DNA of 64,000 nucleotides from a virus. This document shows, piece by piece, positions 8,408 through 11,245 of the stretch (positions are counted from its first letter, which is position 1; each line of letters opens with the position of its first letter). The notes below the pieces were generated by a model, which was given only the letters and a program-made list of their open reading frames with translations, searched no databases and had not been told where the DNA came from. A program made the position numbers and the translations under genes. Location: the IMG/VR virus record IMGVR_UViG_3300025083_000017, positions 5,293 to 69,292 of that record; one strand, written 5' to 3'.

Positions 8408-8626
8408 TTATTCTGTATCTGGTGTGTTATTCTTTTTGTTAAACCCAAATGGACCGGCAGATTCTTCTTCTAGTGCTACCTTTAGTGCAACACCACCGAT
8501 TGCTTCCATACATTTAAGAACGTCTTCTGTCTTAGCACCTTCACCAAGTTCTTTGGCAACGTACCAGTATTTTGGCCAGAATGTTTCTCCTGCCCTTTGA
8601 TAATCATCAAGTGTTAGTAGTTTCAT
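8408..8626 (-). CDS. Hypothetical protein
   Basis: 72 aa; ATGA overlap with the MTase stop. Confidence 0.7.
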   Translation of the reverse strand: MKLLTLDDYQRAGETFWPKYWYVAKELGEGAKTEDVLKCMEAIGGVALKVALEEESAGPFGFNKKNNTPDTE

Positions 8627-9741
8627 AGTTTTGATAATACTTCTTTGTAAATGTTTTCTGCGATGGCTTTCATCATTAGAGGTGGTACCATTCTACCAAC
8701 CCTCTCAGATTGTTGTGAATGAGAACCAGTCAAAATAAAATCATCAGGGAGTGATTGAAGTCTTTTGAGTTCTTGGATTGTGAAACTTCTATCCTCATTC
8801 CAATGAATCAATCCACCACTCGCAGTAAGTGTTGGTGCTGCTTTGAAAAATGATGCTCTCTTGGTATTGAAACAATGACCCTTCTCATGATAATCCATAC
8901 CAGATAGAATCTTTTTAGGATTCTTTGGCATCTTTTTGACTACACTTTGATAGACACTACTGTTCAACATGTGGTCAGTTAGTCTATTTACATCCTCTGG
9001 ATCATTCTCTACACCATCAATAATGTCAGATATGACAGTTTCTTTGGGTGAAGTGGGAGGGAACAATGTAGATACAGTAAGAACATTTAGACCAATCTTA
9101 TCCGCAATATCATTACGAACTGCAATAAAGATTAGTCGTTCTCTACCTTGACCAACACCATGAAAAGATGCTCTCATTACTTTTGATGTAACAAGATAAC
9201 CAATCTCCTCAAATGCATTAGTAATCTTAGCATAATAAGTCTTTGCCTCACCGATTGTCAACCCCTTAACATTCTCAGCAACAATAACCTTGGGTTGAAT
9301 TGATTTGGCAACACGAATATACTCAAAGAACAAGTCTTCAATGTTCTCTACCTTCTTACCATCAGAGTAGTTCTTGGTCTTACCCCAACCATCAGAGTGT
9401 TTAGCACCCTCACCACGACACATAGACCCTGCTACAGAGAATGCTGAACAGGGTGGTGACCCATCAAGAATGTCTAGTTCCCCAGGTTTCAGACCAGTGA
9501 TCTTGAGGAAGTCACCGCCTACCAACTGTTTGATGTCATCAGGAACAATATGAGTTGAGGGATAGTTTGCAGCATAAGTCTTTCGTGCTTCCTCTACAAA
9601 CTCATTAATACACAGAATCTTACCACCAGCAAGACGATAACCAGTAGAGGATCCTCCACCGCCAGCGAATGTAGATATGACAGTGAACTTGGCTTGTGCC
9701 TCACCGTCATAAACATCTTGTAACTTATATGGTAATTTCAT
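8623..9741 (-). CDS. C5-cytosine DNA methyltransferase-fold enzyme, predicted carboxymethyltransferase
   Basis: Motif I FAGGGG, IV GSPPC, VI ENV, VIII QGRER, IX RLQSLPDDF; motif X reads GRMVPP instead of GN(A/S)VPP. Confidence 0.9.
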   Translation of the reverse strand: MKLPYKLQDVYDGEAQAKFTVISTFAGGGGSSTGYRLAGGKILCINEFVEEARKTYAANYPSTHIVPDDIKQLVGGDFLKITGLKPGELDILDGSPPCSAFSVAGSMCRGEGAKHSDGWGKTKNYSDGKKVENIEDLFFEYIRVAKSIQPKVIVAENVKGLTIGEAKTYYAKITNAFEEIGYLVTSKVMRASFHGVGQGRERLIFIAVRNDIADKIGLNVLTVSTLFPPTSPKETVISDIIDGVENDPEDVNRLTDHMLNSSVYQSVVKKMPKNPKKILSGMDYHEKGHCFNTKRASFFKAAPTLTASGGLIHWNEDRSFTIQELKRLQSLPDDFILTGSHSQQSERVGRMVPPLMMKAIAENIYKEVLSKL

Positions 9742-10553
9742 ATTGGTAGAACTCCTTCACCAGTAGATGCATAGTCGGAAGCCAAGTCCATAACTCTCTT
9801 CCTCTTACGATTATTTAGCATTTTATCATCTAATAAAGTTTCAAACAAGTGGTCAATATTAGAACCAAGTTGAAGATTGATATGATCCTTTACATTAGTG
9901 ACTCTATCAAATTCTTTTTTGAATGCATCTCGTACAACTTGTTTCTGTTTGGGTTGATTCAATTCAAACCAATCATACTTGAAGAAGTAATCTCTTACTT
10001 CATCATGGTAAATGTAAGGATGTACTAGTTTTATATCTCTCTCATTTGACAACTGTTCGATCTGACGAAACCCTGTCACATTATGTGGCATAAAATAATT
10101 ACGTCTGAACTGATCAAACTTTTCTTTCGGTTCTTTGAAATGAAGGATAGCTTTCTTACTCACACCATAGTAACCATCAGCACCAATACCAGTTAAAAGA
10201 TATGACTCTTTGATGTGAGGGAAGACATATAAGAAGGGGAAAGTACATTCAAAGTGTGTTTTCTTCCTACAGTCATAGTCTTTGACCAGACGTTTAAAGT
10301 CATCTACAAGATTATCCGTAGGAACAACAATAGTCTCACAGTCCCAACCAAACTCCTTGCTGACTTCTTCAGCTTTGTTTGCATCATAAGACTTATCACC
10401 TTCAAGGTGAAAGGTATATGCAGTAATTTTTTTACCAAGACGATGGGCAGCAAAACCCAAACTCAGACTGTCTACACCTCCAGACAACAAAATCCCCACA
10501 GTATTTGTGGGGACTTTATGAATAATGATATCCTTAAGGATGGTATCAATCAT
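9738..10553 (-). CDS. Asparagine-synthetase-like ATP pyrophosphatase (synthetase domain only)
   Basis: PP-loop LLSGGVDS, LTGIGADGYYG, late HPY motif; lacks an N-terminal Cys glutaminase domain. Confidence 0.8.
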   Translation of the reverse strand: MIDTILKDIIIHKVPTNTVGILLSGGVDSLSLGFAAHRLGKKITAYTFHLEGDKSYDANKAEEVSKEFGWDCETIVVPTDNLVDDFKRLVKDYDCRKKTHFECTFPFLYVFPHIKESYLLTGIGADGYYGVSKKAILHFKEPKEKFDQFRRNYFMPHNVTGFRQIEQLSNERDIKLVHPYIYHDEVRDYFFKYDWFELNQPKQKQVVRDAFKKEFDRVTNVKDHINLQLGSNIDHLFETLLDDKMLNNRKRKRVMDLASDYASTGEGVLPI

Positions 10554-11245
10554 TTAATTGCAATAACTCCAACGAACTGATGATTTCTCCAGAAGATCTG
10601 ACAGTCTTTGAACCCTGCAGTCATCACCATATCTCTCAACTCAGACCATGTATTAGGTTTCAACATATCACGAAGTTGTTTCTCCTTATCCATGATTTGT
10701 TCAGCAGAGAAGGTCTTTCTCTTGTAATCATAATGATTAAAGGTAAGAAGTTCTTGAAAGAATGCATTCTCACACATCAACTTCTCGGCAAAGATGAATG
10801 CACCACCCTCATTGAGACCATTATATATCTTATTGATAGTCTCCTGTCTGGTAGTCTTGGGCATGAACTGTAGGGTGAATAGTGATGTTACCAGAGAACA
10901 GTTCTTGAACTCATAGTTAATAACATTACCACGGACCCATTCTAATATTGCACCAGGGTATTCTTTACGAACCTCGATATGACGTTCTTCAAGATCATCA
11001 TAGAAACTACCAGCAAGTTCTACACCCACATAATGTGCATACTGACGATTAGGGTTGTTACCAATAATCATCTTGGTAAGTTTACCTGTGGAACACCCAA
11101 CATCAACGACTTTAGTATGGTCTTCTACAAAGTATCGTGAGAATGATACAGTGTCCTCTAGAAGGTTTGAGTAACCTCTGATACTATCGTTGATATGATT
11201 ATCAAATCCTTCAGGAGAATGTGCAAAAGAAAAGTCGTATGTCAT
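10550..11245 (-). CDS. cmoA: CmoA-like carboxy-S-adenosylmethionine synthase
   Basis: FDNHINDSIRGY, DVGCSTG, FTLQF, GGAFIFAEK, AGF..FW..F.G.IA.K follow the CmoA family pattern. Confidence 0.8.
   Translation of the reverse strand: MTYDFSFAHSPEGFDNHINDSIRGYSNLLEDTVSFSRYFVEDHTKVVDVGCSTGKLTKMIIGNNPNRQYAHYVGVELAGSFYDDLEERHIEVRKEYPGAILEWVRGNVINYEFKNCSLVTSLFTLQFMPKTTRQETINKIYNGLNEGGAFIFAEKLMCENAFFQELLTFNHYDYKRKTFSAEQIMDKEKQLRDMLKPNTWSELRDMVMTAGFKDCQIFWRNHQFVGVIAIK

Follow-up and report, generated by a model that had tools for sequence, protein, structure and literature searches.

The cassette and its motif X arginine

The 64,000-nucleotide stretch of DNA analysed here (the window) comes from a T4-like cyanophage, of which the source record is a 69-kb fragment estimated to be 36% complete. 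Over window positions 1-64000, 44 of the 48 open reading frames (ORFs) of at least 150 residues lie on the minus strand, and no tRNA genes were found. The genes considered in this work are cmoA, cmoY and cmoX, with cmoY sitting between the other two (Table 1).

Table 1. Genes and sequence features of the cassette; enzymatic functions are predicted, and positions are those of the window.
Feature	Positions	Strand	Basis
cmoX: predicted DNA cytosine-C5 carboxymethyltransferase, C5-MTase fold, 372 aa	8623..9741	minus	ORF; PF00145; PDB 8YF3; identity to S-B43 CmoX
Motif X, ERVGRMVPP	8680..8706	minus	translation; opposite HhaI FGNSV and HaeIII IGNAVP
Arg350 codon, AGA	8692..8694	minus	codon read here; R350 opposite HhaI N304; role in 8YF3 from PMC12783734
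Motif IV, S95-P96-P97-C98-S99; catalytic Cys98, then Ser99 at the HhaI Gln82 position	9445..9459	minus	phmmer alignment; SPPCS
cmoY: predicted ATP-dependent amide ligase, asparagine-synthetase PP-loop domain, no glutaminase domain, 271 aa	9738..10553	minus	PF00733, E 8.8e-16; identity to S-B43 CmoY
cmoA: predicted carboxy-SAM synthase, 231 aa	10550..11245	minus	TIGR00740, E 1.7e-31; identity to S-B43 CmoA

The product of cmoX matches PF00145 with an E value of 3e-52 over profile positions 1-324 of 324, and TIGR00675 with an E value of 3.7e-45. Its translation contains the cytosine-C5 methyltransferase (C5-MTase) motifs FAGGGG (motif I), SPPC (IV), AENV (VI) and QGRER (VIII). The departure comes at motif X, near the C-terminus of the 372-residue ORF, where the Asn of the usual GN[A/S]V, which lines the SAM pocket on its methyl side, is absent and Arg350 stands instead. 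Translation of the minus strand bears out the original reading of this site: plus-strand positions 8680-8706 give ERVGRMVPP, and the plus-strand "tct" at 8692-8694 is AGA on the minus strand. In phmmer alignments to PDB sequences, R350 falls opposite Asn304 of M.HhaI (FGNSV) and the motif X Asn of M.HaeIII (IGNAVP); the arginine therefore occupies the motif X Asn position, as had been claimed. The same alignments place Cys98 opposite the HhaI nucleophile C81 and Ser99 opposite Q82. A further alignment with the C-terminal fragment of the query (fragment residues 3-52) runs without length change along 3av4_A 1255-1304 and puts R350 at chain position 1290. If this chain starts at DNMT1 residue 291, position 1290 is N1580. 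DNMT1 N1580 has in turn been equated with HhaI N304 in the relevant passage of PMC10666283.

The correspondence with M.MpeI, the enzyme whose engineered N374K variant the original prediction invoked, had to be taken from the literature. Its structure 4DKJ aligned to the query by phmmer only over 134-235, outside residue 350, and a search with the last 60 query residues alone, at E values up to 10, returned 28 sequences with 4DKJ not among them. The equivalence of M.MpeI N374 and M.HhaI N304 rests on statements in PMC6009647, PMC10666283 and PMC5944983. In the first of these, M.MpeI Q136A/N374A is named beside HhaI Q82A/Y254S/N304A; in the second, HhaI Q82 and N304 are assigned to the conserved motifs IV and X, and the same positions are described as engineered in M.SssI (Q142A/N370A) and M.MpeI; in the third, M.MpeI residue 377 is placed in motif X. 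The salt bridge from N374K to the cofactor carboxylate is described in PMC12015181 and PMC13288465.

Arg350 is not a chance variant of this one phage. It is fixed among close relatives: the motif X column reads Arg in every one of the 120 closest clusters at 90% identity, and likewise in all 80 related loci of IMG/VR. The Asn-to-Arg departure at motif X defines a CmoX subgroup within the PF00145 fold.

The top PDB match of the cmoX product is 8YF3, a 372-residue "cytosine-specific methyltransferase" (phmmer, E 8e-223). This is the CmoX of Synechococcus phage S-B43 (SpCmoX), whose crystal structure and Arg350 role were published in Nat Commun on 7 December 2025 (PMC12783734). According to the main text of that paper, SpCmoX transfers a carboxymethyl group from carboxy-SAM (Cx-SAM) to cytosine C5 in GC sites, a target determined by nanopore sequencing and oligonucleotide assays. 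The wild-type enzyme uses Cx-SAM only and refuses SAM. In the 1.9 Å structure with Cx-SAM, Arg-350 stands where HhaI has Asn-304 and is in contact with the carboxymethyl group; the Discussion remarks that this arginine "strikingly mirrors" M.MpeI N374K. The partner proteins are described as well: SpCmoA makes Cx-SAM, and SpCmoY, an asparagine-synthetase homologue, ligates glycine to the carboxyl of 5-carboxymethylcytosine (5cxmC), so that S-B43 DNA carries 5-glycylcarboxymethylcytosine (5gcxmC) on about 75% of its GC sites. Using SPPC plus R350 as a selection rule, the authors collected 5,615 CmoX candidates, on whose contigs they counted 4,257 CmoA, 2,251 ligase and 1,660 ParBc genes. In the literature collection searched here, PMC12783734 was the one paper on CmoX to turn up. 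The later discovery of 5cxmC in phage genomes is mentioned in PMC13288465.

The window proteins align to their S-B43 counterparts without gaps, at 325 of 372 identical residues for CmoX (87%), 198 of 231 for CmoA (86%) and 223 of 271 for CmoY (82%). All the CmoX residues that the paper singles out are unchanged, namely the cofactor contacts F25, E47, F48 and D69 together with S95-C98 and R350, and the window protein conforms to the published selection rule with its SPPC and its Arg at position 350. Many of the 47 substitutions among the 372 CmoX positions fall within 181-300, the variable region between conserved motifs. At the nucleotide level, the nearest phage records (S-B43, S-B05 and RB11-B) are about 80% identical over 91% of the 3.5-kb cassette. 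In the Pfam search, the window CmoY gave no match to a GATase domain. The best family of the window CmoA is TIGR00740, at 109.7 bits, which is under the curated NCBIfam cut-off of 193.3. A PF08003 search for CmoB, which was positive in 7 of 14 control genomes, gave no match in the 69,292-base record, and at about 36% completeness this absence concerns the fragment only.

The central ideas of the original prediction, that the arginine is the natural counterpart of M.MpeI N374K and that the enzyme is a DNA carboxymethyltransferase fed by a neighbouring CmoA, have thus both been demonstrated for the 87%-identical S-B43 orthologue (PMC12783734). The carboxymethyltransferase reading of the window is supported, but already known: the CmoX family, its structure and its arginine were in print by December 2025.

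Linkage of the arginine to CmoA in viral loci

The original prediction had also suggested asking whether Arg-type methyltransferases are statistically linked to cmoA neighbours. Four scans of IMG/VR yielded 317 loci (L002-L318). The close relatives of the window CmoX, at 85% identity or more, make up 80 of these (L002-L081), and three alignment-led scans toward Asn-type and Leu-type relatives produced 234 loci in which motif X could be read. An HMM search at E values of 1e-5 or lower served to find CmoA-like ORFs, and methyltransferase ORFs truncated ahead of motif X were left out. Scanning IMG/VR with a single protein, either the Asn-type P0244 or the Arg-type P0154, found nothing, whereas the alignment-led scans succeeded.

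A CmoA match is present in 63 of the 80 close-relative loci; the other 17 have no more than 2,521 nt upstream, which is under the largest cmoA-to-cmoX spacing seen. The linkage proposed holds in the 234 loci: a CmoA-like ORF accompanies 153 of 178 Arg-type loci and none of the 56 non-Arg loci (45 Leu, 10 Asn and 1 Gln). When both flanks reach at least 3 kb, the figures become 55 of 55 versus 0 of 16. The 25 Arg-type loci without CmoA each have a flank shorter than 3 kb and so are uninformative rather than contrary. In CmoA-positive loci, the distance from the methyltransferase to the CmoA gene is at most 1,898 nt for every one of the 191 Arg-type ORFs, with a median of 0, and TIGR00740 is matched by each of the 67 CmoA-like ORFs that the first scan gave. 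Fisher tests give p values of 8.7e-12 for the first set and 1e-34 for the 234 loci, although both overstate the evidence, as related loci are treated as independent. On supported branches, the first set holds 2 independent contrasts, all in the expected direction; the combined set holds 4, again all in the expected direction, and with a sign-test p of 0.125 these are too few to reach 0.05.

Domain fusions lend weak support to the same link. An Asn-synthase domain occurs in 7 of 97 Arg-type representatives and a CmoA domain in 1 of 97, while neither is carried by any of the 43 non-Arg representatives; the fusions cluster in few clades. In the former, the Asn-synthase domain is fused N-terminally to CmoX to give proteins of about 680-700 residues. 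In the latter, the 559-residue P0132, CmoX is followed by a C-terminal CmoA domain, the 1 member among 97 with a TIGR00740 match. Intein or Hint domains are inserted in several CmoX homologues. The Arg-type representatives with fusions or insertions are P0154, P0270, P0245, P0132, P0147, P0160, P0217 and P0134.

As a sister group to the CmoX clade, the 45 Leu-type loci (L162-L208) are among the nearest neighbours of the window protein on the trees. Their motif X reads ARIGLMVAP and their motif IV reads PPCP in 45 of 45, and CmoA was found in 0 of 45. The Leu-type methyltransferase follows a T4-like DNA polymerase gene in 33 of the 45 loci, and in 35 it directly precedes a Tet_JBP dioxygenase gene (PF12851, E 5e-11). 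We think that these loci probably belong to the phage MTase-TET route described in PMC8256090.

It is worth asking at this point whether the window enzyme could be an ordinary SAM-dependent C5-cytosine methyltransferase, in which Arg is tolerated without effect on the cofactor and the CmoA-like gene serves some other purpose. Its full set of C5-MTase motifs and its end-to-end PF00145 match are compatible with such an enzyme, as is the score of the window CmoA below the curated cut-off. The 87%-identical orthologue, however, uses Cx-SAM only (PMC12783734), and the Arg is invariant in the 120 close clusters and tracks CmoA in every locus where the flanks allow a call. The sister clades with Asn or Leu, by contrast, go without CmoA, and the Leu clade adjoins the Tet_JBP dioxygenase instead. 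Taken together, we consider an ordinary methyltransferase very improbable.

A second covarying site and repeated switching

Of the 150 nearest 50%-identity representatives, 99 are Arg-type with a usable alignment. Ten of the 150 were left off the trees: P0139, P0167 and P0219 have motif X before motif I, and the other seven have a C-terminal alignment score under 85 or stop short of position 350. The search signature GR(M)VPP put forward originally proved too narrow in its literal form, since exact GRMVPP is found in only 8 of the 99 Arg-type representatives; G-R-[A/S]-V-P-P is found in 61 of 99. SPPC, on the other hand, is present in 149 of the 150 representatives whatever their motif X residue, and is common to the Asn-type relatives. 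With SPPC shared in this way and GRMVPP rare, it is therefore the Arg, rather than SPPC, that carries the discriminating information within the subfamily, as judged from these alignments. The rare motif X residues among the 150 are Lys (P0140), Tyr, Met, Gln and Asp (P0137, P0152, P0238 and P0210). P0140, which combines the motif X Lys with an Ala after the Cys, would be nature's version of the engineered N-to-K replacement.

Arg-type and Asn-type enzymes are intermingled in the phylogeny. On the best IQ-TREE tree, 13 Asn/Arg changes are required, of which at least 8 are forced by well-supported branches alone, and the FastTree picture is similar. Where gene context is visible, the Arg is accompanied by CmoA at each of these changes.

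The motif X residue does not vary alone. The residue after the catalytic Cys, Ser99 in the window and the position of Gln82 in HhaI, covaries with it. Among the 89 Arg-type 50%-cluster representatives with a readable motif, this residue is Ala in 44, Ser in 36, Cys in 4, Lys in 3, Thr in 1 and Gly in 1, and never Gln; in their Asn-type counterparts, it is Gln in 23 of 33. The viral ORFs give a similar picture, with Ser in 177, Ala in 39, another residue in 4 and Gln in 0 of the 220 Arg-type methyltransferases, Gln in 6 of 10 of the Asn-type, and Pro in 45 of 45 of the Leu-type. Of the independent contrasts, about 7 of 8 pair Ala/Ser with Arg and none runs the other way, with sign-test p values of 0.016 (median) and 0.031 in two analyses. 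The second site is not mentioned in the main text of PMC12783734.

From this covariation, Ser99 may be regarded as a second pocket adaptation that accompanies the Arg, and this has a bearing on the published mutant. The original prediction expected an R-to-N revertant to change cofactor preference. As reported in PMC12783734, R350N of SpCmoX accepts neither SAM nor Cx-SAM; the Arg is therefore necessary, but the preference does not flip, and the choice between SAM and Cx-SAM is not a single-residue toggle. The dead revertant may reflect the adaptation at the second site. We would go further and suggest that SAM versus carboxy-SAM use is a repeatedly evolved two-residue switch and not a single Asn-to-Arg change, with near-identical phages separately swapping only the ligase, a proposal to which we give even odds. 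A two-residue switch would explain why the R350N single revertant is dead, and if it is true, a double change should convert enzymes in either direction. For dissecting the switch, the subfamily offers many natural pairs of Asn-type and Arg-type sister enzymes, with P0203 or P0263 against P0270 as candidates on the trees. Natural users of Cx-SAM seem to be marked by the combination of their motif IV and motif X residues. Both details could guide enzyme engineering for 5cxmC-based sequencing.

The proposed pathway, its ligases and related systems

We read the ORF at 8623-9741 on the minus strand, with a probability of roughly 0.93, as a CmoX orthologue acting in a CmoA-CmoX-CmoY pathway. CmoA (10550-11245) would convert SAM and prephenate to carboxy-SAM. 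CmoX would flip out the cytosine of GC sites, and Cys98 would attack its C6; the carboxymethyl group of Cx-SAM would then be transferred to cytosine C5, while Arg350, at the methyltransferase motif X Asn position, would hold the extra carboxylate of the cofactor. CmoY (9738-10553) would adenylate the new carboxyl and ligate glycine to it, and the resulting 5-glycylcarboxymethylcytosine would shield the phage DNA from restriction. To this scheme the present analysis contributes the sequence with its residue alignment, the orthology and gene order of the cassette, and the linkage of Arg to CmoA; the chemistry, the Arg-carboxylate contact, the GC specificity and the glycine amine are carried over from orthologues at 87, 86 and 82% identity.

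One IMG/VR contig (L002) matches the window at 99.4% identity over 5,061 nt (window 15614-10554) and at 98.2% over 3,370 nt (window 9741-6373). Between these two blocks, L002:5062-6458 exactly replaces the window cmoY (9742-10553) with a 1,397-nt gene for a 465-residue protein of glutamine-amidotransferase and Asn-synthase domains. To judge from the two sequences, the ligase gene has been cleanly exchanged between near-identical phages. The product of the L002 ligase is likely to be a carboxamide instead of a glycine amide, and if this reading is true, the final base would differ between members of one phage lineage.

More broadly, 56 of the loci L002-L081 have a full-length cmoA upstream of cmoX, and the genes in between vary. 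A 464/465-residue glutaminase-ligase stands there alone in 31 of the 56, and CmoY alone in 12, including L006-L009, in which only a 117-residue frame was seen by the ORF finder. In 4 loci there is nothing but 40 nt; in 4 there is a 314/315-residue protein with CmoY, in 2 a 443/448-residue protein with CmoY, and in 3 the glutaminase-ligase with a second CmoX paralogue. The 314-residue and 448-residue proteins have no Pfam match at an E value of 0.01 except for one weak LRAT match. Tandem pairs of Arg-type CmoX are common, with 276 methyltransferase ORFs having a motif X in the 234 loci. The order is typically cmoY-cmoX1-cmoX2-cmoA (for example L210, L220, L234, L252, L254 and L261-L267), and the two copies presumably have different target sequences.

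Such exchangeable ligase modules, as in the contig that is 98-99% identical to the window on both sides of its 465-residue replacement, raise the question of whether the window CmoX works as described while its CmoY takes another amine, in which case the final base would not be the glycine amide of S-B43. That 31 of the 56 loci with full-length CmoA carry only the glutaminase-ligase between cmoA and cmoX points in the same direction, and the main text of PMC12783734 mentions ligase clusters with other predicted substrates. The window CmoY, however, is equal in length to the glycine ligase SpCmoY and 82% identical to it without a gap, and we regard another amine as unlikely, if somewhat less so than an ordinary methyltransferase.

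It is worth pointing out that the raw sequence led to the same conclusion as the crystallography and biochemistry of the published paper, namely that carboxymethyltransferases, previously believed to be engineered enzymes only, had already arisen in nature. Because CmoX had already been published, the value here lies in the correct annotation of one more uncultured cyanophage member of the CmoX family.

The closest known system is that of S-B43. Its SpCmoX and the window protein are both of 372 residues, with SPPC, Ser99 and Arg350 in common, and both cassettes have overlapping genes in the order cmoA-cmoY-cmoX in a T4-like cyanophage background. The differences are the 47 CmoX substitutions and the origin of the window, an uncultured IMG/VR contig known from sequence alone. 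The engineered M.MpeI N374K, a CpG enzyme (PMC13288465 and PMC12015181), shares with CmoX a positively charged residue in place of the motif X Asn, and this residue is considered to pair with the carboxylate of Cx-SAM. The engineered enzyme has a Lys and a CG target, whereas natural CmoX has an Arg and a GC target, the latter known from S-B43; in addition, M.MpeI N374K still methylates with SAM (28% protection), while the natural S-B43 CmoX uses Cx-SAM only. A similar comparison can be made with the mTAG enzymes, M.HhaI Q82A/N304A and its M.SssI and M.MpeI equivalents (PMC10666283), in which the positions opened by design, the motif IV Gln and the motif X Asn, are those that differ jointly in the natural Arg-type enzymes, as Ser/Ala and Arg. 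The mTAG pair of Ala/Ala removes bulk to accommodate long synthetic cofactors, whereas the natural pair consists of a small residue and a charged one. Finally, the phage pairs of a C5-MTase and a TET-like dioxygenase (PMC8256090; bioRxiv 10.1101/2023.12.21.572611) belong to the same methyltransferase subfamily as CmoX and likewise install a C5 handle for later hypermodification. Unlike CmoX, the Leu-type clade has Leu at motif X, PPCP at motif IV, no CmoA, and in 35 of 45 loci Tet_JBP as the next gene.
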